NCBI GenBank assembly: GCA_963592135.1 | Contig: CAVAVP010000015.1 | Span: 3,272-67,271, forward strand | Origin: a bacterium | GTDB lineage: Bacteria; Bacillota; Clostridia; Christensenellales; UBA3700 | DNA: 64,000 nucleotides | Direction: 5' to 3' | Shown: one piece after another, positions 5,984-54,968 of the stretch | Layout of the letters: each line of letters starts with the position of its first letter | Numbering within the stretch: position 1 is the stretch's first letter | Made by a program: the position numbers and the translations under genes | The notes under the pieces: generated by a model | Databases searched by the model: none | Seen by the model: only the letters and a program-made list of their open reading frames with translations | Told to the model about the DNA's origin: nothing

Positions 5984-7141
5984 TTAATTATTTTCAGTAT
6001 TGTTTTGTGTTAAAGCAGGTTCTATGTTTTGTTGTTCGGTTGAACTCTCTATGTTTTGCGATTTATTTTCGATAGAGTTTTCTTGATTATCTAGAGTAAG
6101 TGTAGAGTTGCTTGTCTCAGTTTCTTGTTCTTGAGGTGTTGTTGTATGTTCAAGGTTTGGATTTTCTAACATTAACTCTTTTACTTTGTTCAAAGAAAGA
6201 GGAACGCCTATCTCTTCTTTTATATTTGCTGGCATTTGATCTTTTTTCCAAAGAAGGGAAGCATAAACAACTTTTTCCTCTGGAGTTATAGCTAATTTAT
6301 ATATTTTTAATTTGTTTTTCTTGTTCATACCAAAGCCTATATTTCTTTTAATACATTTAGGGTCGGTAATTTCTCTTATTCCATCTAATACGTCGGCTTC
6401 AAGTAAGGTGTTTTTAATTTCAGTTATGCAATCAGTTAAAATAAAGCCAGTTAGTACTATCATTGGAAGAAGTAAAGATAGAAGTAGGGCTAGTGTTGAA
6501 GATAGCCAATTTAAAACATGGGATAGAACTGATGCAGAGCCAGTGTCAACATATGAACCTAGTATATAATCTTCACGAATCCACCAAGAATCATCAACTG
6601 CATTTGAAGAGCCGTATGTTTGGAACCACCTAACACCATTTTCATCTTCCCAAACAGTCTTTATATGGTGAAATACAAGTGTTGATTCAGCCTTTGCGGC
6701 AGTTTTTATTTCGTTAGAATAAAATCCAAATGCTTGTTTAAATGAAACTTCGTAAGTTTTATTAGAGATTGTATCTGGCATAATTCTTTTACAACCACTT
6801 ATACTAAAATCTTTATAAGAAGGATAGTAGTCATAAAAAGCTATAATATCTCCATCTTTTAGAGTATCAGTGTTTGTAGCTCTAACTAAAACATTATCTC
6901 CGATATTAAAGCCGCTTTTTACCATTGAGCCTGATATAACTTGTAGATTGCTATATCCAAACATAGATGGAGGAGTATTTTGATTTTTACAGTTAAAACT
7001 TACTATAGAAAATAAAATACCAATCAACACTAAAAGAAAGCAAATAAGATCTAAAATGCTTCTTATGGTTAACTTGATTACACCAATAGCTGTAATCTTT
7101 GGTTTTTTAGATAGTGAATTTATGCTTTCAATATTTTCCAT
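5984..7141 (-). CDS. sipW: SipW-type (ER/archaeal-type, S26B) signal peptidase I with a ~190-aa C-terminal extension
   Basis: N-terminal TM anchor. Ser box QVISGSMVKSGFNIGDNVLV, His box TLVFHHIK, and YGSSNAVDDSWW corresponding to the GDNN..D box. A second TM (LALLLSLLLPMIVLTGFIL) is followed by a ~150-aa tail ending in Q/N/E/T-rich low complexity. Confidence 0.75.
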   Translation of the reverse strand: MENIESINSLSKKPKITAIGVIKLTIRSILDLICFLLVLIGILFSIVSFNCKNQNTPPSMFGYSNLQVISGSMVKSGFNIGDNVLVRATNTDTLKDGDIIAFYDYYPSYKDFSISGCKRIMPDTISNKTYEVSFKQAFGFYSNEIKTAAKAESTLVFHHIKTVWEDENGVRWFQTYGSSNAVDDSWWIREDYILGSYVDTGSASVLSHVLNWLSSTLALLLSLLLPMIVLTGFILTDCITEIKNTLLEADVLDGIREITDPKCIKRNIGFGMNKKNKLKIYKLAITPEEKVVYASLLWKKDQMPANIKEEIGVPLSLNKVKELMLENPNLEHTTTPQEQETETSNSTLTLDNQENSIENKSQNIESSTEQQNIEPALTQNNTENN

Positions 7142-7174
7142 AGTTTTGGTTTCTCTTGATATTATAAGAAATTA

Positions 7175-7213
7175 TGCACCCTAAATCAAATCGAAATAGA
7201 GTGCATTTTTTTT
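7175..7213 (-). terminator. Hairpin between the secreted-protein gene and sipW; possible partial or bidirectional terminator
   Basis: Plus-strand arms TGCACCCT (7175-7182) and AGAGTGCA (7198-7205) form an 8-bp stem with one wobble. T8 follows on the plus strand. On the minus strand an A-run precedes the stem and UAAUUUCUU follows it. Confidence 0.4.
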
Positions 7214-7239
7214 CATTCGTTTGTTTAATCAGATTTTGA

Positions 7240-7792
7240 TTAAGCTTTTACTTGAGCTTCAAGTACCCATGTAAATGTTCCATCTAAAACTGCAGATTTT
7301 AATGTATCTGTAACTGTAACTTTAACATAGTATACACTTGTAGCACCAGCTGCAACTGTAACTGAACTTGAAGAAGCTGCATATGTTACGCCATCAGCAC
7401 TGTATTCAACTGTCATATTTGTATCATCATTACCTGCTTTATAAGATAATGTAGCAATATATGGATTTTCTTCAGAAGAGTTTGTGAAATCAAACTTATA
7501 AACTACTGAATTGTTTTCTGCAGATAAATCTAAAGCTGTTGGGTTGATAGCTGTATTTTGATCAGCTGTTTCATAACCTGTGAATGTAGCTGTACCTTTT
7601 AATGTGTCAGACTTATAGCTTTCTGTAATCTTTACTGAACCAACTACATGTTTAGCAACGTATGTAACGTTAACTCCTGAAGTTGTTGTTTGTCTTTCGT
7701 AAGCGAATACTGCTACTGCAGAAACTGTCATCATGATCATAACTAAGCATAAAGCTGCTAATGATACTATTAATCTTTTCTTTGTTGTCATA
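7240..7792 (-). CDS. Small secreted beta-rich protein (183 aa); candidate dedicated SipW substrate or fibre subunit (TasA/camelysin-like in architecture only)
   Basis: AAGGAG lies 9 nt upstream of the ATG at 7792; the track start at 7812 would contain this RBS. Basic n-region, hydrophobic core LIVSLAALCLVMIMMTVSAVAVFA, then a T/S/V/Y-rich alternating sequence typical of beta-sandwich proteins. It sits directly upstream of sipW. Confidence 0.5.
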
Positions 7793-7906
7793 GTTTTTTT
7801 CTCCTTAAACAATTAAATTTTATTTCATAGTTTTAATTTTTTTTGAAACAGCAATTTTTATAATTTGTGCCATTTCGTTTTTGACACCTACATTCTATCG
7901 TTTAAG

Positions 7907-7940
7907 TAATTACAAAATAATTACAAACAAATTGTAATTT
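7907..7940. promoter_or_regulatory. Operator-like cluster: TAATTACAAA twice as direct repeats 11 bp apart, plus an inverted TTGTAATT
   Basis: Read directly: TAATTACAAA at 7907-7916 and 7918-7927, TTGTAATT at 7932-7939. The cluster lies in the 246-bp region upstream of the secreted-protein gene. Confidence 0.35.
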
Positions 7941-8021
7941 TTTGCAACATCTGCCAGATTATAGACAAAAATTGCCAAAAAAGCGAATTTTGCTTATGTT
8001 TTAACAAAAAAGGCTTGTAAT

Positions 8022-8052
8022 TATTAAAAAATAAAGCAACAAATTGTTGCGA
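8022..8052 (-). terminator. Rho-independent terminator after the 856-aa gene
   Basis: Minus strand: GCAACA-AUUU-UGUUGC stem-loop (plus-strand 8035-8050) followed by UUUAUUUUUU, 7 nt downstream of the stop codon. Confidence 0.6.
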
Positions 8053-8058
8053 TTTTTA

Positions 8059-10629
8059 TTACTTTGTTTGCAGATAGTTTTTCATGAATAAATTCTTAAA
8101 TATAAGGAATATAGAATATAGGATTATATATATAATGATTATAAATACTACACCTAGTAGTATTTTTCCAATTATGCTGCTAAATATATCGTTGAAGTTA
8201 ATTTTTTTGCCGGAAAATAATTTTTCAATTAATGAAAGCGATGGAAGTGAAACATCATCAATATTTAGATAAGAAGCAATTTTGTCTATAACTGTTTGCT
8301 GAGTATCGGCACTTGTCATTGTTACGTGCTCTTGCATTAAATCATCAAGAGAGTAGATAGAGTCTTCTCTTATAATGCCTTTACATGAGTTTATGTATTC
8401 CTCGTAATTAATCTCATTATTTAAGGAATTTAATTTCCCATAAAATTGCATATAAGCATATAAAGATATAATATATTCACCTGATTCTCCGTAAGTAATA
8501 GAATCTACAAGATTAACTTCTTGTTTTTGGAACCATGTAATATCACTTGTGTCGGTTGTGGACCATCCCTTAAAAATGTAAAGGGCATAGTCTTTGCCAA
8601 CATTTAAACTTCCAATTTTAACAGCATCATAATTTTGGCCAATAAAACCTTTTACAAATGTTGGCAGTTTGACTTTATCGCCAAGGCCGCCAGCAGTTTC
8701 CATGTAATAAATACCATTAACATAATATTTTATAGAGAAGTGTTTGTAGATATAAACCTTCGCAGGAAGTCCATCTTCTGCCGAAGAAAATAAAAAGCCA
8801 TTATATTCAAAACATTTTATTTTTTCATTTTTTTCATTTAGAACGAAAAAGGATGTAGCATCATATTTGTCATAATAATATCCAATTCCTGTACTTCCGT
8901 CGTGTTTACCATAACAGTACATACTTTTTCTTAAATGGTAATAACTATCTCCAATATATTCATATTTGGCTGGTTGAATGCCTGTATTATAGTAATAAAC
9001 AGATATAGGATGTTTTTCAGACCATTGTGCATATAAAACTATATCTTTACCTCCTTTAAATTCAGAAGAGGAGGTTGTAGTTGTAAAATCAGCATCTAAG
9101 TACCAACTTATAAATTCATACCCATCAAGAATAGGGACCGCTTGATCTTTAGGTACATCGTATTTGCGTATATAGTAATGATATAGTGGATTATCTGGAT
9201 CTTCTTTTCCACCATTGAACACATACGAGATAGAGTATATTGCAGGACTATCTATTTGAATATAGTCTGGAACGCCCAAGGAGACAGAAGATATGTAATT
9301 TCCTTTTAATTGTGAAAGACTTATAATACTGCCGCCTGTTGAGATTACACTAAAAGTTGTAGCTCCGCTTACTTTAGATGTAAGACTATTTAAATCTTCA
9401 GAATAATAATATGTGCCTTCGTGTTCATAATAACTTATAGTATCCACTTTTTTATCTATAATCTTATAAAAATCTGTTGTTTTATAGTACGCCTTAGCAA
9501 ATTTAAGTTCACTGAACTTTGCATATAAAGTAATATCGCTTGCAACAAAGTCCGAGGAGGCAGGAGTAGAAGTAAAATTTTCATCAAGATAATATCCAAT
9601 AAATTGATAGCCATACTTAAAAGGAATAGGAATAGATGATGAGGCTAGTTCGCTCTTAGTATTATAGTAGTTATATAAGGCAACTAATTTTTTACCACCA
9701 TTAAGCTCATATTTTATTGAATAAAAGGTGTTATATATTGCAATATGGTCGGGAATTCCAGCGGATTTAAGACAGAAGTTTTTCCCCATGGTTGTTATAA
9801 GTCTAAAATTATTATCATTTTTATCTTGAATAGAATAGTTTTCAAGATTATAGCCAGAATTAAAATTTTCAATAAGTTCAGTGAAACCATACATTTCTTG
9901 TGTCATTATGTCGTAGTAGCCTACGGTTCCTATTTGTGTGTAAATTTTTTTATAGTAGTCGTGGGTTATTTTATATACAGGTATGTATTCTATTTTTGAA
10001 AAACAAGCATATAGTGTAATATCGTTAGAAAGTTTAGTTCCTTTGATTGAATAATAACTATGTTCGTAGGTTGTTTCTGAAAACCAGCCTATAAATTTAT
10101 AGCCATCTTTGCTGGGATTATTAAGAGAAATATAAGTTTCGTTGTCCGCGTAAACATAGTGGATATTTTCTGTTTCTAAAGTCCCTTCGTCTAATTCGTA
10201 AGAAATCTTATAATATGGCCTATAAATATGTATTTGCGTAGGTTGCCCGTTAGTATCTATGTAGTAATGGCCATTTTCAATGTAAGCGCCAGTTACCATT
10301 AATCTAGGGCCTCTGTATGCTTTACAAGTTGTAGCATTATATGTTTTATAAAAATATCCAAGTCCTGATGTTGTGTCAGAAACAGCACCTAGGTCAATTT
10401 TATAGTTTGATACATTAGTAAGTTCAGAATTGAATTTAAAATATCCAAGATTATTGTTTTGAAGTTCACCATCTACAATTGAAATATCATGAATTGTTAC
10501 CGTTAAAACCTCTGTAGAAGATTCAGCTTCAACTATATTTTCATTTGAACTAAAAACAATAAAAAAGGCAACGACTAATAAAAGTAGTAGGAGAACAAAA
10601 ATATAATAAACTTTATATTCTTTTATCAT
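8059..10629 (-). CDS. Doubly anchored (N- and C-terminal TM) surface protein made of 4 x [~85-aa Tyr-rich module + Listeria-Bacteroides/InlB-B-type repeat]
   Basis: N-terminal TM YYIFVLLLLLLVVAFFIVF; C-terminal TM ILLGVVFIIIIYIILYSIFLIF. Four repeats end in GYKFIGWF...DITLYACFS, GYQFIGYY...DITLYAKFS, GYEFISWY...DIVLYAQWS and FKGWSTTD...ISLYAYMQF. Confidence 0.75.
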   Translation of the reverse strand: MIKEYKVYYIFVLLLLLLVVAFFIVFSSNENIVEAESSTEVLTVTIHDISIVDGELQNNNLGYFKFNSELTNVSNYKIDLGAVSDTTSGLGYFYKTYNATTCKAYRGPRLMVTGAYIENGHYYIDTNGQPTQIHIYRPYYKISYELDEGTLETENIHYVYADNETYISLNNPSKDGYKFIGWFSETTYEHSYYSIKGTKLSNDITLYACFSKIEYIPVYKITHDYYKKIYTQIGTVGYYDIMTQEMYGFTELIENFNSGYNLENYSIQDKNDNNFRLITTMGKNFCLKSAGIPDHIAIYNTFYSIKYELNGGKKLVALYNYYNTKSELASSSIPIPFKYGYQFIGYYLDENFTSTPASSDFVASDITLYAKFSELKFAKAYYKTTDFYKIIDKKVDTISYYEHEGTYYYSEDLNSLTSKVSGATTFSVISTGGSIISLSQLKGNYISSVSLGVPDYIQIDSPAIYSISYVFNGGKEDPDNPLYHYYIRKYDVPKDQAVPILDGYEFISWYLDADFTTTTSSSEFKGGKDIVLYAQWSEKHPISVYYYNTGIQPAKYEYIGDSYYHLRKSMYCYGKHDGSTGIGYYYDKYDATSFFVLNEKNEKIKCFEYNGFLFSSAEDGLPAKVYIYKHFSIKYYVNGIYYMETAGGLGDKVKLPTFVKGFIGQNYDAVKIGSLNVGKDYALYIFKGWSTTDTSDITWFQKQEVNLVDSITYGESGEYIISLYAYMQFYGKLNSLNNEINYEEYINSCKGIIREDSIYSLDDLMQEHVTMTSADTQQTVIDKIASYLNIDDVSLPSLSLIEKLFSGKKINFNDIFSSIIGKILLGVVFIIIIYIILYSIFLIFKNLFMKNYLQTK

Positions 10630-10747
10630 ACGCTTTAATAAGTGCCTGCTGATTGCGAATTAAGGGAGAAGCAAAAAGCAGGCATGGGAGACGAAGTAAT
10701 AAACCCACTTCGAATATAAACTAACCGACAAGGGTTAATTTAAGTAC

Positions 10748-10776
10748 ATTGTATAACCGAGTAAGGTTAAAGTCAA
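10748..10776 (-). promoter_or_regulatory. Sigma-A-type promoter for the 856-aa gene operon
   Basis: Minus strand: TTGACT (10776-10771), 17-nt spacer, TACAAT (10753-10748). It leaves a ~110-nt leader with two hairpins (10692-10712 and 10644-10683). Confidence 0.55.
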
Positions 10777-10836
10777 CACTTTTATTAAAGAATGTGCTAA
10801 AGTCTATTTGAATAATTTAACACAAGTAGGTTAGAA

Positions 10837-11148
10837 ATGGTTTTTGCGGAAAGATTAAAACAATTAAGAGAGGATAGAGGTTTGTCTCAATCAGCGCTTG
10901 CAAGAGCAACAGGTTTAAGACAAAGTCATATCTCTGCATGGGAAAGCGGAATAAGGCAACCTCTTCCCGATGGTTTAATGAGACTTGCAGATTATTTTTG
11001 TTGTAGTATAGATTATTTGTTGTGTTATGGACCAAACAATCAAGAGAAAAGAAAAATAGATGAAACAATTGCAGAATTAAGTTCTTTATCGAAAGATGAT
11101 CAACTAAAAGTTGCAGGCTACATAGATTGTTTGAAAGGAAAAAAATAA
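10837..11148 (+). CDS. XRE-family helix-turn-helix transcriptional regulator (103 aa), divergent from the sipW operon
   Basis: FAERLKQLREDRGLSQSALARATGLRQSHISAWESGIRQP is a canonical Cro/C1-type HTH. A short C-terminal helical tail follows. Confidence 0.85.
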   Translation: MVFAERLKQLREDRGLSQSALARATGLRQSHISAWESGIRQPLPDGLMRLADYFCCSIDYLLCYGPNNQEKRKIDETIAELSSLSKDDQLKVAGYIDCLKGKK

Positions 11149-11326: not shown

Positions 11327-12613
11327 ATGAAAGAAAGAATAAAGGCTGAACTTTGGGATAAAACTCAATATATATTATCTAAATTCTATGATAGGATGAT
11401 GCATTATGCAGTCTATATGGACGGGGATTTAGATTTAGACTTAATTAGAAAATCTATAGATAAAGTAATTAAAAATGTTAAGGTGTTAAGATCAAGATAT
11501 GTTCCTAATCCTATAAGACAATACTGGCTTGTAACAGAAAAATACAGCATAGAAGAACTTGCTACAAAAGAAGAAATTGACGATTTAAATGGCAGTGTTG
11601 AAGAATTTTTAAAAATACATATATCCCATAAATCTAGATTTCAATTTAGAGCAAAGATTTTTACATGCAAAGATAAATGTGCATTTGCTTTAGTAGTTAA
11701 CCATCAATGTTTTGATGGAAGCGAATTAAAATATACTGTGAGAAAAATAGTTGAATGTTATAACGCATTTAAAACTAATGGAAATGCAGATTCAGTTGAA
11801 ATAAAAAACGGTTCTCGTGCTATAAAGCAATTGTATGAAAAAATGGCACCTAGTACTAAAGCAAAGGCAAAAAAACTTTATAACAACGCTTCAAAAACTG
11901 GAGTAAAAAGTCACTTTAGATTTACTCAGAATAAAGAAGTGTCAAAGATTTTCTTTACAAGAGTGTTGGATATAGATTTTGTAAATAAATTAAAAGAAAA
12001 AGGGAAAAAATACAATGCAACATTAAATGATGTTATTCTTGCTGCTTACTTTAGAGCTTATGCAAAAGAAGCAGGATTTGATAATAATAAGCTTTTGAAT
12101 ATTACATCAATTGTTGATTTAAGAAGACATTTGCTTTCAGGGAACGATTTAGAAGGTTGCACAAACATGGTTGCATTCATGCCATGCAAATTAAATGGAA
12201 TTGGTGAAAACTTTATAGAAACACTAAGGAAAGTTGCTGAAAATAATAATAATCAAAAAAAAGATGAAGTTGTAGGTTTATATGGAATTCCACTTCTTGC
12301 TCTTGCTTATAAGATTATTTGGTTTGATATAGTATCTGGAATTGCTGTAAAGATAGGTTACGAAAATCCTGTAATGCAGATGAGTAATCTAGGAAAAATA
12401 GATAGAGGCGATGTAACTTTTTATGGTTGCAAAATGACAGATATATTATGTACAGGAGCTGTAAAGAATAGACCATATTTCCAATTAACATGCGTTTCTA
12501 TTGATACTCATTTAAATATATGTATCGCTGAAAATTGTTCTAAAGAAGATGAAGTATTAATAAATAGTTTCTTAGATGATATAATAGAAATATTAAAGGA
12601 ATTTATTGAATAA
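11327..12613 (+). CDS. Stand-alone condensation/acyltransferase-superfamily protein (HxxxDG family: NRPS C-domain / WS-DGAT / PapA5-like)
   Basis: Active-site-like motif VVNHQCFDGSE (H-x3-D-G). Downstream motif NATLNDVILAAYFRAY. Length 428 aa. RBS GAGGTG. Confidence 0.6.
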   Translation: MKERIKAELWDKTQYILSKFYDRMMHYAVYMDGDLDLDLIRKSIDKVIKNVKVLRSRYVPNPIRQYWLVTEKYSIEELATKEEIDDLNGSVEEFLKIHISHKSRFQFRAKIFTCKDKCAFALVVNHQCFDGSELKYTVRKIVECYNAFKTNGNADSVEIKNGSRAIKQLYEKMAPSTKAKAKKLYNNASKTGVKSHFRFTQNKEVSKIFFTRVLDIDFVNKLKEKGKKYNATLNDVILAAYFRAYAKEAGFDNNKLLNITSIVDLRRHLLSGNDLEGCTNMVAFMPCKLNGIGENFIETLRKVAENNNNQKKDEVVGLYGIPLLALAYKIIWFDIVSGIAVKIGYENPVMQMSNLGKIDRGDVTFYGCKMTDILCTGAVKNRPYFQLTCVSIDTHLNICIAENCSKEDEVLINSFLDDIIEILKEFIE

Positions 12614-12628
12614 GGAATTTGTTAAATA

Positions 12629-13105
12629 ATGAAAATTGTATTTGTATGTTCGTCTAATATTTGTAGAAGTCCTTATTGTGAAATTATGATGCAAAGAATG
12701 ATTGAAAACGATAAGGATTTAGCAAGCAAAGTTAAGAAGGTGTCTTCGGCGGCTATGTTAAATAGATCTTTTAAGATAAATCCAAAAGCAGTTTTGTCTT
12801 TAAGAAGGGAAGGGTTTAGTGATGATGTTATATATGCTCATAAACCTAGATTTAAAATTGCTGCATGGAAAGATTTAAAAGAAGCTGATCTAATTATTGG
12901 AATGAACAATGCAAATAAATTTTTTACTCCACTTGTATTTAAAAAGAAGTTTAGAACATTATCCGAGGTTGCAGAAAATAAATATAAAAACATACCAGAC
13001 CCATGGCTTATGAAGGATATGAATGATTATTATGCAGTCATGGATATTCTAAAGGATTATTTAAATAAATTTGTTGAAAGAATTAAAAGAGGAGATTCTT
13101 TTTAA
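12629..13105 (+). CDS. Low-molecular-weight phosphotyrosine/phosphoarginine protein phosphatase family protein
   Basis: P-loop VCSSNICRSP (C-x5-R-S) at the N-terminus. A DP loop, IPDPW, lies near the C-terminus. The gene starts 15 nt after the upstream gene. Confidence 0.8.
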   Translation: MKIVFVCSSNICRSPYCEIMMQRMIENDKDLASKVKKVSSAAMLNRSFKINPKAVLSLRREGFSDDVIYAHKPRFKIAAWKDLKEADLIIGMNNANKFFTPLVFKKKFRTLSEVAENKYKNIPDPWLMKDMNDYYAVMDILKDYLNKFVERIKRGDSF

Positions 13106-13209
13106 AAGGCCCAAAGAATCGGTAAAAACTTAAAAATATGGGTATAGACACATAATTTTGTTTATGTTATAATTCTTATGATTAATAATTTTACTAAGAA
13201 AGGAATTTT

Positions 13210-14724
13210 ATGGAAAAAATAGCAATTATTGATGTAGGATCAAATTCAGCTCGTCTAGTTATAGTAGATATTCTAGAGAGTGGTTATTTTCAAGTTAGAG
13301 ATCAATTAAAGGAAACTCTAAGACTAGCTCAAGATATGGAAAATGATGGCTTTATTCAACCTGTTAGAATAGCTCAAACAGTAAGAACCTTAAAAATGTT
13401 TTCTAAACTTTGCGAAGCAAATAAGATTGATAGAATTTATGCTTATGCAACAGAAGCAGTAAGAAAGGCTAAAAATCAAAGAGGATTTTTAGATGAAATC
13501 GAATCCTCAACAGGTATAAAATTAAAAGTTCTAAATGAAGAAGAAGAGGCAAAACTTGTTTATCAAGGAGTTATAAACTCATTAGATATTCCAAGAGGAT
13601 TAATTGTAGATATTGGTGGTGGTTCTACTAACTTTATTTACTACAATAGAAAGAACTTGCTTTACTACGCAACACTTCCTCTTGGTGCAGTTGTTATTAC
13701 CGATATGTTTAAAGATGATGGCTCATCCCCTCTTGAGAAGTCTGAAAAGATGGAAAAATATGTTATGGAACAATTAAAGACTCTTCCATGGCTTCCTGAG
13801 ATTGCTCCTGATACAAAACTTATAGGTGTTGGTGGTTCATTTAGAAATGTAGGTAAGATTTCAAGAATGCTTAAGAAATATCCATTATCTATGGCGCATA
13901 ACTATGAATTAAAAATAGATGATTTTAATAGCATTTATAATAATATAAGATCTATGGCTATTGATAGCACAATGAAGATAAAAGGTTTATCCTCTGTAAG
14001 AGCAGATATATTCCCAGCAGCTCTTGCTGTTATGAGTGGAATAATGAAGCAATGCTCATTTGATGAAATTGTTATGTCTGGTTGTGGGTTAAGAGAGGGT
14101 GCAATGTTTAAATATGCTGTACCATCAACAAATGAAAAACCTATTAATGATATCTTAGGTCATAGTATTTATTCGCTTTTGAATTTCTTTAATGAAAATA
14201 TTGATCATGCTGAACAAGTTTATGAATTGTCTATGCAACTATATAAACAATTAAAAGTTATTCATAAATTACCAAGACAATATATGAAGGTTTTAAGAGT
14301 CGCAGCGCTTTTACATGATACGGGAACAAGAATTAAATATTATGAACATCAGTATCATTCACAATATATAATTCTAAATAGTAATTTATATGGTATTTCT
14401 CATAAAGACTTGGTCGTTGCGGCATTTGTAACTTCACTTCATAGAAAAGGTGAATTAAATGTACAAGAATTAAGTAAATATAAGGATATACTTACAGAAG
14501 AAGATTTGTCCGCTATATTAAAACTTGGCGTAATTGTAAGAATTGCAGAGAGTCTAGATAGAAGTCAATGTAAGGTTGTTAACACAATTATTTGTGATGT
14601 TCTTGGAGATAGCGTAATTATGAAGGTTGAAGGTGAGGGCGATATTTCTCTTGAATTAAAAGATGCTATGTCTGCAATCCCAGACTTTAAGAGAGCATAC
14701 AAAAAGAATCTTCAAATTTTATAA
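13210..14724 (+). CDS. ppx: Ppx/GppA-family exopolyphosphatase / guanosine pentaphosphate phosphohydrolase with C-terminal HD domain
   Basis: N-terminal actin-like ATPase motifs IDVGSNSARLV and DIGGGSTN. C-terminal HD region AALLHDTG. Length 504 aa. Confidence 0.85.
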   Translation: MEKIAIIDVGSNSARLVIVDILESGYFQVRDQLKETLRLAQDMENDGFIQPVRIAQTVRTLKMFSKLCEANKIDRIYAYATEAVRKAKNQRGFLDEIESSTGIKLKVLNEEEEAKLVYQGVINSLDIPRGLIVDIGGGSTNFIYYNRKNLLYYATLPLGAVVITDMFKDDGSSPLEKSEKMEKYVMEQLKTLPWLPEIAPDTKLIGVGGSFRNVGKISRMLKKYPLSMAHNYELKIDDFNSIYNNIRSMAIDSTMKIKGLSSVRADIFPAALAVMSGIMKQCSFDEIVMSGCGLREGAMFKYAVPSTNEKPINDILGHSIYSLLNFFNENIDHAEQVYELSMQLYKQLKVIHKLPRQYMKVLRVAALLHDTGTRIKYYEHQYHSQYIILNSNLYGISHKDLVVAAFVTSLHRKGELNVQELSKYKDILTEEDLSAILKLGVIVRIAESLDRSQCKVVNTIICDVLGDSVIMKVEGEGDISLELKDAMSAIPDFKRAYKKNLQIL

Positions 14725-30387: not shown

Positions 30388-31638
30388 TTATGCGCATTTA
30401 TTGCAAAGTGAACTTCTTATTTCTTTTGCATAAGTGCAATCAGAATCTTTTATATCATAACCATATTTAATCATGGTTGTAGAATTAGCTTTGCCGGTAT
30501 AGTAAATTATGGCAGCACCTACTTTTCCGCTCCATGATTCATCAATGTAGAAAGATTTAGCAAGGCCACACTCCCAAACCTGTAAAGTAACCTTTAGAGA
30601 TTCATACTTTATGCCTTTACCAGAGTTGTCTTTATCAAGAGTATTGCACGTATGAGTATCATTTGCGGCTTTTTCAATATCTGCTTCAAAGTATATTTCA
30701 TAGTATTCATCTTCCTTTTCGATTCTAACAGTAGATGCGTCAATTAAATCGGCATATACGGTAGAAGTAGCTAATGTGTCTTTTAATTCACCTACATATA
30801 ATTGAATCTTTCTTACGTCAGAGTAGGAGTCATCATCATTATCTTCTGTTAAATATTTTGTATAGTCACTGCTTTTATGCCATTTATCTCCTTTCTTCCA
30901 ATTAGATTTATCTACTTCAAGCATTCCAGTTGTCGCGTTATATTGAATATTTTCAGAATTTACAGTGATTTTATGGTATAACCCACCTTCTTCAAATCGT
31001 ATTGTAGCATCAGTAACAAAACTGGCAGCAGTTGAGTCAAAGTTATGATTTATTGGAAGTTTTATGGTTGTATCATATTTCATATGATTGGCCTCTCTTC
31101 TAATTCTTTGGTAAATCATTGTTCCTGAATTTTCACCTAAATTAGTAGTTCCAACTTGGTATTTAAAGTAAGCAGAGTTTGAAACAAAGACTTCATTTCC
31201 AGTTGAGAATAAAACTGCAGCAGCTGCTTTATATTGGTCAGATAAAGATGTATCATCAAGTATGCTTTGTAAATCATATCTACATGATTCAGCAACCGAT
31301 GTAGATGGTGCTTTATCTACGCTAGCAATTTCAGCAGAAAAGTCGATGTTTCTTGGATCTAATATATCTCCAGTTACGTTAGAAGCCTTTTTTAATATAC
31401 CTAAAAATCCTAAAGTGAATTCTTCAACGACAAATACAATTATAAGAACTGCAACTATACTTGCCGTAATAATCCCGGCTTTAGCACCTTTATTTAATTT
31501 TTTCTTAGAGCTTTTCTTAGTTGGCTTTTTGTATTCAATATCATCATCCATTTCAGTATCATCAAAATCTGAAAAATCAAGGGATTCATCATCTATAGCC
31601 TCTATGTCTTTAATTTCTTCGTTCTTCTTATTTTTCAT
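30388..31638 (-). CDS. Type II membrane protein: acidic N-terminal tail, one TM, ~330-aa extracytoplasmic domain of unknown function
   Basis: D/E-rich N-terminus (DDESLDFSDFDDTEMDDD), a K-rich stretch, then TM GIITASIVAVLIIVFVV. I recognise no motif in the ectodomain. C-terminus ends CNKCA. Confidence 0.6.
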   Translation of the reverse strand: MKNKKNEEIKDIEAIDDESLDFSDFDDTEMDDDIEYKKPTKKSSKKKLNKGAKAGIITASIVAVLIIVFVVEEFTLGFLGILKKASNVTGDILDPRNIDFSAEIASVDKAPSTSVAESCRYDLQSILDDTSLSDQYKAAAAVLFSTGNEVFVSNSAYFKYQVGTTNLGENSGTMIYQRIRREANHMKYDTTIKLPINHNFDSTAASFVTDATIRFEEGGLYHKITVNSENIQYNATTGMLEVDKSNWKKGDKWHKSSDYTKYLTEDNDDDSYSDVRKIQLYVGELKDTLATSTVYADLIDASTVRIEKEDEYYEIYFEADIEKAANDTHTCNTLDKDNSGKGIKYESLKVTLQVWECGLAKSFYIDESWSGKVGAAIIYYTGKANSTTMIKYGYDIKDSDCTYAKEIRSSLCNKCA

Positions 31639-52635: not shown

Positions 52636-52790
52636 AAACAAGTCATAATTTTTTCTAAAATCAAGAAATTTACATATTTTTTACTTTTAAAATTAAGATT
52701 TTACATTCTTTATACATAAATCTCTATTGACCTATATTATTATATAAATGTAGGTTTTGGCCTAAGAATCAAAAACTAATGGAGGGATTT

Positions 52791-54968
52791 ATGAAAAAGA
52801 GATTACTTTTAGTTGTAGTTGCTATCGTTTTAGTAGTAGCTATGTGCTCATCTCTTGTTGCTTGTGCTAATAGCAATAACACTAATGCAAAGCCTGAAGA
52901 CAAAGGTAGTTCTTCATTTAATGTAAATGGTGGTTCAAGTACAAGTAGTTCAACAAAATTAATTCAAACAACATCCAAGGCTTCTTTTGAATTATATTCA
53001 ACAGAAGCTATCAATGAAACAGTAGCAGCAAGTGGTGTTAAGGTTATTAACTCAGAAACTGGTGCTGTTTTATATTCTGTAAAGGTTGCTGTTATTGATA
53101 AAGAAGGGAAGAGATTTAAATTATATGCACCTAACGGAGGGTACGATGTTGGTGGATGGTATGAAATCGAATTAACAGACTCTCGTTTATCTTTTGCTGC
53201 ATATGAAAATACAAAGAAAGTTTCAATGTACATTGTTAATGGCAATGTAAACGCTGGTTATACATCTAGTGTTAAATACAGCCAAGCTTTATATTTTAGT
53301 AATTTCTATACAAACAACGAAACTTCATATTTTGAATATAACTATGCAAGCGCAGGTCAGCTTCTAAACGTTGGTGATGTTGTACTTGTTGAAGATGATA
53401 CAAGCAAAGAATATGCAGCTTATAAGATTACTTCAGTAAAAGACTTAGAAGGTGGATATTGCTTATGTTCTTATTTAGCTCCAAAATATAACGAAATTTA
53501 TGAAACACTTGAGGTTTCAGAATCAGCAGCTGTTGGTACAGATGGCGTAGTTGAGTTTGAAACAGAAGCTATTCAAGAATTTGCAGATAACTTAGTTTCA
53601 GAAGCTTTAGAGTTCGGTTTAGGAACAGCTAAGGTTGCAATTGATGCTAAATTAGATGGAGATACAGTTAAACTTTCAGTTAAATTAACTATTCCTGATG
53701 TAGTTGAAACAGCAGATATGGTATTAACATTCAAGATAGATTCAAAGATTACAGCTGATACAGACATTAGTTTAAATACTATTGTTGCAGCAGCAAAGAA
53801 TGGTATTGATGTTACAGCTTATTTTGATAACACATTAACATTTGATGTTTCTATTGAAGATAGATTTGAAGCTTCAGAATCAGCTGAACTTGATGATTTA
53901 ATCAACAAGGTTGCTGCATTTATCAAGGGACTTGATGAAAATGATGTTGAAATCACGATGTTCACATGGACTGTACCTATTGGTAATGGTATTGCTGATG
54001 TTTCTTTTGATGTTAAAGCAACAGCTAACTTCTCTTTCTCTGGAAAGTTAGGAGTTGAATCTACATCTTCAGTTAAGTTTGCTTCAACAGTTACATACGA
54101 TCCATCTGCTGAAAATAATCAAGTTTCATTAAATACAACAAAACCTGAATTTGAATTCGAAACAGTTTCTGGACACATGGAAGGTGTTGCTGAAGTTAAA
54201 GTAGGTCTTTCTAGTGAAATTAAGTTTGAACTATTAGCAGGCGTTTTAATGTTAGGTATCGGTGCCGATGTTGGTAACTACAATAGAGTATATGCTGAAG
54301 TTATAACAGATAACTTATTAGAATCATTAAATGTAAATGGTGGTGCATACTTTGTAGGTGGTGTTTACTACAAGATTAAACTTTTATATGGTATCTCTAC
54401 ATTAAAGACAGGTTCTATTGATTTAAAGAGTGATGAAATCCAATTATACGAAGCTGGTTCTAAATATTATGTAAATCAAATTGATTCTCAAGAAATCACA
54501 GTTAGTGCTGAACCTGTTGACTTAAAGTTAAAGGGTACACAAACAGATATGGTTGCAAATTCAAAGGCTAAAACAGAAGCTGTAGATTTAAAATATGTAT
54601 CTATAGTAGATACTAATGGATATGTTCAATTAGTTGACGGAAAGATTTCTTTAACAGCCGCTGGTGTTGCTCAAGTTGCTAAACAAGCATTAAAGGGATA
54701 TTCAATTACAGTTAAGTATGGAACATTTACACAAACTATTACAATAAATAGTGTTGCTACAATTGAAAAGTCTGCTTCGGATGATTCATTCACTCTTACA
54801 GAACAAGAAGTTGGTACATCAATAGTTGCAGCTGAAGCTGAATATGCAGATGGCAGCGATGTTGTTTACTCAATCAATAATGGAGTTGTTACAATCTCTG
54901 GTGCTAAAGCTGGTGTAATATTCATCAAAGTTGACGGTAGTATCGTAGCTATGGTTGTTGTAAAATAA
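52791..54968 (+). CDS. Large surface lipoprotein (725 aa), unknown function
   Basis: GGAGGG RBS before ATG 52791. Lipobox MCSSLVAC, then an S/N-rich linker and a long V/T/E/A-rich beta-type sequence. Confidence 0.7.
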   Translation: MKKRLLLVVVAIVLVVAMCSSLVACANSNNTNAKPEDKGSSSFNVNGGSSTSSSTKLIQTTSKASFELYSTEAINETVAASGVKVINSETGAVLYSVKVAVIDKEGKRFKLYAPNGGYDVGGWYEIELTDSRLSFAAYENTKKVSMYIVNGNVNAGYTSSVKYSQALYFSNFYTNNETSYFEYNYASAGQLLNVGDVVLVEDDTSKEYAAYKITSVKDLEGGYCLCSYLAPKYNEIYETLEVSESAAVGTDGVVEFETEAIQEFADNLVSEALEFGLGTAKVAIDAKLDGDTVKLSVKLTIPDVVETADMVLTFKIDSKITADTDISLNTIVAAAKNGIDVTAYFDNTLTFDVSIEDRFEASESAELDDLINKVAAFIKGLDENDVEITMFTWTVPIGNGIADVSFDVKATANFSFSGKLGVESTSSVKFASTVTYDPSAENNQVSLNTTKPEFEFETVSGHMEGVAEVKVGLSSEIKFELLAGVLMLGIGADVGNYNRVYAEVITDNLLESLNVNGGAYFVGGVYYKIKLLYGISTLKTGSIDLKSDEIQLYEAGSKYYVNQIDSQEITVSAEPVDLKLKGTQTDMVANSKAKTEAVDLKYVSIVDTNGYVQLVDGKISLTAAGVAQVAKQALKGYSITVKYGTFTQTITINSVATIEKSASDDSFTLTEQEVGTSIVAAEAEYADGSDVVYSINNGVVTISGAKAGVIFIKVDGSIVAMVVVK

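Follow-up and report, generated by a model that had tools for sequence, protein, structure and literature searches.

What kind of system is encoded where the gene of a long signal peptidase directly follows that of a small secreted protein on the chromosome of a member of the Christensenellales? Dedicated SipW-type signal peptidases are a hallmark of TasA-like matrix and pilus systems, which shape the biofilms of Bacillus, Clostridium and archaea. We addressed this question for positions 5984 to 11148 of a 64,000-nucleotide stretch of the contig CAVAVP010000015.1 (assembly GCA_963592135.1, lineage UBA3700), which we call the window. An initial annotation had read these positions as a SipW-dependent surface-fibre or matrix operon of three co-directional minus-strand genes, encoding an 856-aa protein, a 183-aa secreted protein and a signal peptidase, with a divergent plus-strand gene for a 103-aa XRE regulator. 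All four open reading frames (ORFs) lie where it had placed them. The system that we find is narrower than this proposal, as it comprises two genes, yet broader, as it is a family-wide sorting module: we consider it fairly probable that the functional unit consists of the 183-aa pre-protein followed by a dedicated long S26B signal peptidase, which together form a surface-protein processing module. The features of this unit are the following (AF2, structure model; pLDDT, predicted local distance difference test score):

7240..7791, minus strand: gene of the 183-aa "type A" secreted protein, the presumed substrate (ribosome-binding site and ATG, family alignment, AF2)
7702..7791, minus strand: signal peptide of the 183-aa protein, aa 1-30 (cleavage-site logo, information content)
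7164..7216, minus strand: imperfect hairpin between the small gene and the peptidase gene (inverted repeat with 20-nt arms, 75% complementary)
5984..7141, minus strand: gene of the long S26B-type signal peptidase, 385 aa (ORF listing)
6542..6970, minus strand: catalytic domain of the peptidase, aa 58-200 (SEC11A box alignment, alignment of 34 homologues, AF2, Foldseek)
6149..6385, minus strand: cytoplasmic helical domain of the peptidase, aa 253-331 (alignment of homologues, pLDDT)

The pairing of the two genes recurs across genomes. Scanning one genome per species (185,579 species) with an alignment of the peptidase, we detected 45 loci, whose six-frame ORFs were searched with hidden Markov models (HMMs) of both families, using a cut-off of E<1e-10 for the small protein. 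All 45 belong to metagenome-assembled genomes from gut and rumen, labelled Clostridia, Christensenellales, 'uncultured Christensenella', Candidatus Onthoplasma, Oscillospiraceae or Lachnospiraceae. One to five small-protein genes are present within 5 kb upstream of the peptidase gene and on its strand in 36 of the 37 species-level loci that have at least 1.2 kb of upstream DNA, and nearly all the small-protein genes of those loci (60/61) lie upstream of the peptidase on the same strand. The seven loci with no small-protein match have less than 600 nt of upstream sequence. Metagenome contigs display the same pairing. When the ORFs of the neighbourhoods were clustered, just two widely conserved partners emerged, the small-protein family (40 of 48 loci) and a "type B" paralogue (13 + 8 loci); the clustering gave no further widely conserved family, and so no conserved sortase, usher, chaperone or pilus-assembly gene. 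Co-occurrence in other genomes had been expected of all three minus-strand genes: it stands for the small protein and the peptidase and fails for the 856-aa protein, which has one close homologue.

The middle ORF spans 7240-7812 on the minus strand and would encode 190 aa if counted from a TTG. We place the start at the ATG at 7791, which gives 183 aa, has an AAGGAG 8 nt upstream and is where the database homologue P0001 begins. The AF2 model (pLDDT 86.7) consists of a helix at residues 3-29 (pLDDT 84-94), a low-confidence linker (residues 30-36) and a ten-strand beta-sandwich, in agreement with the secreted beta-rich protein that had been described at this position. The mature window protein has 153 aa, an isoelectric point (pI) of 4.5 (family median 4.4), no cysteine and 26% Ser+Thr. 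A word-indexed search had returned only two proteins, and the protein could have passed for an orphan; this status is rejected, as an exhaustive HMMER scan recovered 312 cluster representatives at E<=1e-3, 74 of them at E<=1e-10. Among the best 151 family members, 85 have at most 260 aa and 56 exceed 450 aa. Eight of the nine long members examined have the family domain at the N-terminus, with BspA-type leucine-rich repeats (LRR; LRR_5) after it, and long members share the signal peptide of the short ones. The gene of one of them, the LRR protein P0046, has no peptidase gene within 8 kb, and the substrates thus appear to be both clustered and dispersed, as in other sorting systems. At locus L053 (1-3038 and 4501-7611), a dispersed module-bearing LRR adhesin stands beside a giant gene, with a product of 6971 aa, and a 1036-aa protein, both without a Pfam match.

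No curated family in Pfam or NCBIfam covers the 66 short family members, and the window protein itself has no significant Pfam, NCBIfam or PDB sequence match. DUF6550 gave sub-threshold matches in 27 of the 66 (the best at E 0.0015 and 19 bits, where the cut-off is 27), which extend over the signal peptide and the first strands; it is possibly a distant, uncharacterised sister family of similar length, and these matches do not amount to membership. The C-termini that we inspected across the family close with F-x-W-x-L and a few further residues; they have neither an LPXTG nor a hydrophobic tail. We also considered a phage origin of the protein and rejected it: a PHROGs scan gave a single, marginal match (E 0.0093), Foldseek matches in BFVD are generic uncharacterised beta-sandwiches, and the context is one of chromosomal housekeeping genes.

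The signal peptide is the most conserved part of this family, at 2.29 bits per column, followed by the first mature strand and the last strand (2.14 each) and the core (1.6-1.9). In the window protein it comprises aa 1-30 and ends in V28-F29-A30, with a predicted cut after Ala30 (V-F-A↓Y, the arrow marking the cut). A cleavage logo was made from 149 members aligned to the family HMM at the end of the hydrophobic helix. Position P3 is V in 103, I in 22, A in 19 and T in 5 (149/149 in all); P2 is F in 69, L in 62, Y in 7 and W in 5 (143/149); P1 is Ala in 142; and P1' is A in 92, L in 29 and S in 13. Downstream of the cut motif the family reads x-x-Q-T-[IV]-x-S-x-[IVL]-N-[VI]-x-Y-x-A, with the Tyr present in 140 of 149. 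V-[F/L]-A↓A has the sequence of a textbook -3/-1 site for a signal peptidase. Such a degree of conservation is not seen in ordinary Sec signal peptides and argues for a cognate enzyme.

The 385-aa peptidase carries the expected catalytic boxes. In a phmmer search against PDB, the Ser, His and Asp boxes of human SEC11A fell on its VISGSM, VFHHI and GSSNAVDD, so that the catalytic residues are Ser72 (SGSM), His158 (FHH) and Asp184 (NAVDDSW), all three invariant across an alignment of 34 homologues. The S26B boxes reported in the initial annotation are thereby borne out, as are the position of the peptidase at the end of the gene order and its length of about twice the normal. Between the Ser and His boxes lies an insertion of ~45 aa, and S72 is 86 residues from H158; the corresponding distance in SEC11A is ~40 residues (S56 to H96). 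In the AF2 model (pLDDT 77), an N-in transmembrane (TM) helix (~18-53) precedes a beta-rich catalytic domain (58-200) and a long second TM helix from residue 201, beyond which come a helical cytoplasmic domain up to residue 331 (pLDDT 81-90) and a disordered tail rich in Q/E/N/T. The modelled catalytic domain would sit between the two TM helices, outside the membrane. The top Foldseek match in PDB is human SEC11A (7p2p_A; prob 1.0, template modelling score, or TM-score, of 0.55 normalised to the target), with LexA/UmuD next. A protein database search gave 40 relatives of the peptidase, most of ~390-450 aa and none with a precomputed Pfam domain.

The cytoplasmic domain had no Pfam match and no PDB sequence match. 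It contains five invariant residues in the peptidase alignment (D260, M272, K277, L297 and W298) within the family consensus LELDCVEEKRKITDxICVKNNIGFxMDxKTKYKILAQA...YISLLWK, and judged by these alignments and searches it is a novel, conserved domain without known family. Some peptidases of the family reach 630-745 aa, with C-terminal extensions far beyond the 385-aa version of the window, at loci with three to five tandem small-protein genes (L034 9842-12073; L035 9800-11908; L040 485-2617; L041 9830-11962; L042 1640-3817; L033 9803-11707). At L005, L006 and L012 (7989-9056 and 9037-9468) the peptidase frame is split: the catalytic part is in a 355-aa ORF, and a second ORF, of 143 aa, matches the C-terminal region. 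A frameshift or an error of sequencing could account for the split, or the cytoplasmic domain could be naturally separate in this lineage.

The type B protein, found at ~21 loci, begins with a cytoplasmic N-terminus rich in Lys, continues with a TM segment and a beta domain, and has no V-x-A motif. As a divergent paralogue of the substrates it matches the family HMM with E values down to 1e-26, and its gene abuts or overlaps that of the peptidase (-34 to +54 nt). Examples are L004 7450-7989, L017 778-1320, L022 9294-9842, L026 1436-1981 and L055 1225-1815, in addition to ~16 other loci. It could be a membrane anchor or an accessory subunit similar to SPC22/23.

From these sequences we infer that the peptidase removes residues 1-30 of the neighbouring small protein. 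The pre-protein would be inserted by Sec via its long family-specific signal peptide, and the active site (Ser72/His158/Asp184), which the model places on the outer face of the membrane between the two TM helices, would cut after V-[F/L]-A (Ala30). Cleavage would leave an acidic, Cys-free 153-aa beta-sandwich whose new N-terminus is the conserved amphipathic strand QT-x-S-x-[IVL]-N-[VI]-x-Y-x-A. The released module may be a cell-surface or matrix building block; other genomes encode it as one to five tandem paralogues, and it also heads BspA-type LRR adhesins encoded elsewhere in the genome. This reuse on dispersed adhesins suggests that the peptidase and its cognate signal-plus-domain make up a small surface-protein sorting system. 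A regulatory role of the cytoplasmic domain is speculative. The most likely fate of the mature module would be non-covalent polymerisation, or adhesin docking, via N-terminal strand exchange, as in TasA. Polymerisation is hinted at by the paralogues in tandem, by an acidic composition devoid of Cys and by the conserved alternation of hydrophobic residues in the first strand. A further hint comes from Foldseek, where the small-protein model scores best against PitB, a shaft pilin, and five entries of FimA, of which three are wild-type and two are variants reversed at the N-terminus (E ~1e-5). Fibre formation by the system is plausible; that fibres are built by exchange of this strand, or adhesins docked by it, is a speculative analogy that we put forward tentatively, with well under even confidence. 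A fuller picture, which we regard as possible and doubtful, is that of an unrecognised class of monoderm surface fibres in gut Christensenellales, in which a long Sec11-like bifunctional peptidase would process acidic strand-exchange subunits, LRR-fused adhesins would plug into the fibre, the uncleaved type B protein would act as an anchor or SPC22/23-like subunit, and the cytoplasmic domain would couple processing to regulation or to the translocon, all convergent with TasA.

Several results weigh against the two-gene processing module and the fibres that it might build. For the peptidase, SipW (NF046067) and TIGR02228 are the only NCBIfam matches, and both fall short of their curated cut-offs: the SipW equivalog scores 49.1 bits (E 4.7e-13) against a cut-off of 190, and TIGR02228 45.8 bits (E 5.6e-12) against 51.85. 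A Pfam scan at E<=1 matched no family. The predicted agreement with S26B models therefore holds in that these are the sole family matches and SEC11A the top structure, and fails at the cut-offs; having missed them, the peptidase is by its residues a divergent but catalytically intact S26B relative, and no SipW equivalog. The small protein, for its part, gave no match to either of the models by which the initial annotation had suggested it be recognised. TIGR04088, the model of the SipW-cognate signal, is missing from the NCBIfam matches of the window protein at E<=1 and from the 25 most frequently matched of the 51 families found with its 66 relatives at E<=0.1; the family motif [F/L/W]-A↓A resembles the W-A↓A of TasA by eye, which is a resemblance and not membership of TIGR04088. 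Peptidase_M73/TasA matched neither the window protein nor appeared among the 25 most frequently matched families of the 66 relatives. An hhalign comparison of the family profile with B. subtilis TasA, whose sequence was checked against 8AUR, gave a probability of 1.6%, and the TasA superfamily is absent from the best 50 of 1554 PDB Foldseek hits, all of which have low TM-scores for a model that includes the signal helix. With Pfam, NCBIfam, a PDB profile search and hhalign all negative, we rejected a relationship to TasA in sequence, in line with the earlier remark that the small protein is not TasA-like in sequence. The TM-scores of the FimA and PitB matches are likewise low (0.31-0.40), and these matches may reflect a mere generic likeness of beta-sandwiches. 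The structure predictions are of monomers, which are unable to show strand exchange. Lastly, type B is absent from the window, though it abuts the peptidase gene in ~21 other loci, and because it is missing the window version of the system may be a reduced one.

The third minus-strand gene and the divergent regulator gene have to be assigned a place beside this module. They and the regions around them are made up as follows:

7908..7963, minus strand: conserved region 5' of the small gene, with TATAAT at 7963-7958 and ATTACAA/TTGTAAT palindromes (block shared with the related contig L001, repeat scan)
8036..8050, minus strand: terminator-like hairpin GCAACAATTTGTTGC followed by a T-run, 9 nt past the stop of the 856-aa gene (terminator scan)
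8059..10629, minus strand: gene of the 856-aa lineage-specific surface protein (ORF, Pfam, NCBIfam, self-alignment)
10630..10836, no strand: divergent control region between the XRE gene and the 856-aa gene (promoter, operator and folding scans)
10837..11148, plus strand: gene of the 103-aa XRE (HTH_3) repressor-like protein (Pfam)

The build of the 856-aa protein is as first described, with anchors at both ends and four units that each join a Tyr-rich module to an InlB-B-type repeat. Hydrophobic segments are present at the N- and C-terminal ends, the repeats match Flg_new (PF09479; E 9.6e-32, 109.4 bits, cut-off 27) and TIGR02543 (56.3 bits, cut-off 20.95), and self-alignment resolves four units of a ~90-aa module with 10-17% Tyr plus Flg_new. 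The modules share weak but real similarity (M2-M3, E 2.6e-7; M1-M4, 1.4e-4; M3-M4, 0.002). A search of 5.8 billion proteins returned one close relative (83% identity), the next match being 30% identical over 46% of the length. Among the related loci L001-L052, a full-length relative is present only in L001, which is syntenic, while L026 has a weak match over ~230 aa of the repeat region; the protein is missing from the other ~45 loci and is not among the conserved neighbourhood families. With local BLAST and the database search both negative, we rejected it as a conserved partner: as far as sequence comparison tells, it is a lineage-specific neighbour and not a conserved member of the system.

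The 103-aa protein matches HTH_3 in Pfam (E 9.5e-15) and an RstR-like NCBIfam model below cut-off. Its best PDB matches are Pli0006, the Xre-family regulator of ICEBs1, P22 C2 and C.AhdI, and SinR is not among its PDB matches; by sequence it is a generic P22 C2/ImmR-like repressor. The 207-bp region that separates it from the 856-aa gene (10630-10836) is 99% identical to L001 6963-7170, compared with 82-91% for the flanking proteins, which points to a far tighter constraint on this control region than on the genes. It contains a promoter-like TTGACT-17-TACAAT on the minus strand (10776..10748), identical in L001, and three operator-like TAACC-N6-GGTTA palindromes within 112 bp (10722-10737, 10754-10769 and 10818-10833): one within the promoter spacer, one just downstream and one before the XRE start. 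The window holds six matches to this palindrome against 1.6 expected; none is upstream of the small gene (7791), and the clustered sites are confined to 10722-10833. The XRE protein thus probably controls the 856-aa gene and itself, as judged from the arrangement of these sites. The 116-nt leader (10630-10745) folds at -34.1 kcal/mol (z = -5.7). A riboswitch or other known RNA was rejected here, as an Rfam scan of the leader gave no family and part of the structure is the operator palindrome. The promoter, ~110-nt leader and operator repeats that had been proposed are all present, with the reservations that promoter-like sites of this type are as numerous in the region as expected by chance and that the first leader hairpin is the palindrome of one operator-like site.

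Downstream of the 856-aa gene, the terminator-like hairpin at 8036..8050 is partly conserved in L001. Between this gene and the small gene is a gap of 267 nt that includes the conserved TATAAT and the ATTACAA/TTGTAAT palindromes. Hairpin and gap make a single three-gene operon doubtful. The region at 7908..7963 is a probable promoter/operator of the small gene in its own right, and the sequence suggests two transcription units, one formed by the XRE and 856-aa genes and the other by the small gene and the peptidase gene. Within the latter unit, the hairpin at 7164-7216 is imperfect (9-20 bp), is followed by a T-rich stretch and was not called by the terminator scan; it is possibly an attenuator, through which transcripts of the subunit would outnumber those of the peptidase. 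The 856-aa Flg_new protein and the XRE repressor would then form a separate, lineage-specific, repressor-controlled unit that lies next door by chance.

These data allow us to weigh the alternatives. That the locus is a three-gene operon resembling tapA-sipW-tasA, with the 856-aa protein as a TapA-like accessory or anchor and the XRE protein as a SinR-like master regulator, would agree with the co-directional, contiguous genes, with their synteny in L001, and with the promoter-like site and three operator-like sites beside the divergent XRE gene. We hold it to be improbable, because the 856-aa protein has a single close homologue and is missing from ~45 other loci, a terminator-like hairpin and the 267-nt gap with its own conserved TATAAT precede the small gene, no operator motif lies upstream of that gene, the XRE gene is present in just 4 of ~48 neighbourhoods, and SinR does not appear among the PDB matches. 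Neither the accessory role of the 856-aa protein, whose one close homologue is in L001 and which appears to be its own transcription unit, nor a SinR-like control, with operator-like sites that flank only the 856-aa gene, can be upheld from the initial annotation. Dedicated processing without polymerisation deserves more weight, and still seems to us rather unlikely: the domain would be a stalk, a spacer or a wall- or membrane-associated module, and the peptidase would decide between tethering and shedding. The gene pairing and the cleavage motif fit this equally well, the N-terminal helix is modelled confidently, module-bearing long adhesins are dispersed in the genome, type B paralogues without the VxA motif look permanently anchored, and the structural matches to pilins are weak; yet two to five short tandem paralogues without any other domain fit structural subunits better than empty stalks, and the conserved strand right after the cut site would be left with no obvious role.

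The peptidase homologue might also serve mainly as a chaperone or assembly factor, like SipA/LepA, or act mainly in regulation through its cytoplasmic domain. SipA is devoid of catalytic residues; in the present family, unlike SipA, Ser72, His158 and Asp184 are invariant in 34/34 homologues, and the substrates retain a near-perfect -3/-1 cleavage motif, which together render such a role very unlikely. In its favour are the large conserved cytoplasmic domain, absent from ordinary S26B enzymes, the scores below curated family cut-offs, and the precedent of the signal-peptidase-like SipA in the pili of Streptococcus pyogenes (PMC4049620). A basic leader, a hydrophobic helix of ~25 residues and a beta domain superficially recall type IV pilins, of which a prepilin peptidase would trim the short basic N-terminus and leave the helix as the pilus core. 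We give this hardly any credence: the basic stretch is followed by neither G/A at -1 nor Glu at +5, the conserved motif is instead at the C-terminal end of the helix, as in a type I cleavage site, the partner enzyme is of the S26B type and not an aspartic prepilin peptidase, and the clustering of neighbourhoods yields no extra widely conserved family for pilus assembly. Dedicated processing of the small protein by the adjacent long peptidase thus remains the reading that we favour.

How does this two-gene module compare with known systems? It shares with tapA-sipW-tasA of B. subtilis a dedicated S26B-type peptidase beside a small secreted beta-rich protein, a signal that ends in hydrophobic/aromatic-Ala↓Ala (T-W-A↓A in TasA and V-[F/L/W]-A↓A in the window family), and an N-terminus that, once cleavage has created it, forms a beta strand (the donor strand in the case of TasA; PMC9674648). 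It differs in that the small proteins have no sequence or profile similarity to TasA and are modelled as a plain beta-sandwich; there is no TapA, the module is fused to LRR adhesins elsewhere, and no SinR-type control is evident; and the peptidase, encoded last, has twice the length and, in addition, a conserved cytoplasmic domain. Loci of the TasA superfamily often include a dedicated TIGR02228 peptidase (PMC9245690; bioRxiv 10.64898/2026.01.04.697558) and may combine paralogous minor subunits, tip adhesins and a TIGR02228-type peptidase in one locus; the subunits of AbpA, AbpX, Tafi and Saci_0406 threads are small, acidic (pI ~4) and secreted, with an N-terminal donor strand (bioRxiv 10.64898/2026.01.04.697558). 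Small acidic secreted subunits and a peptidase related to TIGR02228 at the locus are thus common to these archaeal and bacterial systems and the window, whereas we found no sequence link between the TasA superfamily and the window's small-protein family. For the peptidases found with AbpX, ten TM helices or a DUF5305 accessory protein have been reported; that of the window has two TM helices and a cytoplasmic helical domain.

The sipW-bsaA system of Clostridium perfringens is likewise found in a member of the Clostridia and places a SipW-type peptidase beside a secreted polymer subunit with several paralogues. Its BsaA polymers are reported to be joined by intermolecular isopeptide bonds and to have a link to type IV pilus genes (PMC11580942); in the window system neither is evident. 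FimA and the sortase shaft pilin PitB, the best structural matches of the small protein, are Ig-like beta-sandwiches with an N-terminal strand, and differ from it in that the host belongs to the Bacillota, the clustering gave no conserved usher or chaperone family, and there is no LPXTG-type signal at the family C-termini inspected, in addition to the low TM-scores. The eukaryotic signal peptidase complex offers a further parallel, as SEC11A is the best match of the catalytic domain both in structure and in sequence. Type B, a single-pass membrane protein with an extracytoplasmic beta domain whose gene abuts that of the peptidase, recalls SPC22/23 in its layout; it differs from SPC22/23 as a paralogue of the substrates, and the window does not encode it.

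The design of a dedicated signal peptidase with a surface subunit is therefore already known, and the parts are new: two unannotated families. Literature searches on DUF6550, on pili or signal peptidases of the Christensenellales, on TasA-like systems of gut Clostridia and on BspA of the Christensenellaceae found no description of them, which, with incomplete coverage, is absence of evidence only. The module adds a second family of substrates, apparently unrelated to the first, together with a peptidase of novel structure, in hosts (uncultured Christensenellales and related Clostridia of human, chicken, rabbit and ruminant guts) whose surface biology is barely described. It may be the main route by which these bacteria display adhesins without LPXTG/sortase anchoring and, if it does build fibres, the TasA logic would have been invented more than once, independently. 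The V-[F/L]-A↓A signal and the HMM of the long peptidase supply sequence markers for it, and the two families deserve curated models.

The surrounding 64 kb are ordinary chromosome of ~30% G+C, without tRNA genes in the window. Among the genes encoded there, almost all of them on the plus strand, are those of an ABC exporter pair, MreB, a radical SAM protein, NAD synthase and a GH38 mannosidase. Downstream of the XRE gene, positions 11327-14724 (plus strand) encode a stand-alone Condensation/PapA5-like acyltransferase (428 aa), a low-molecular-weight phosphatase (158 aa) and a Ppx/GppA phosphatase, a group that is syntenic in L001 (3073-6455); a free-standing gene is unusual for an acyltransferase of this kind. 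Three large ORFs of the window match no Pfam family at E<=1e-5, namely 3-1808 (601 aa), 30388-31638 on the minus strand (416 aa) and 52779-54968 (729 aa).

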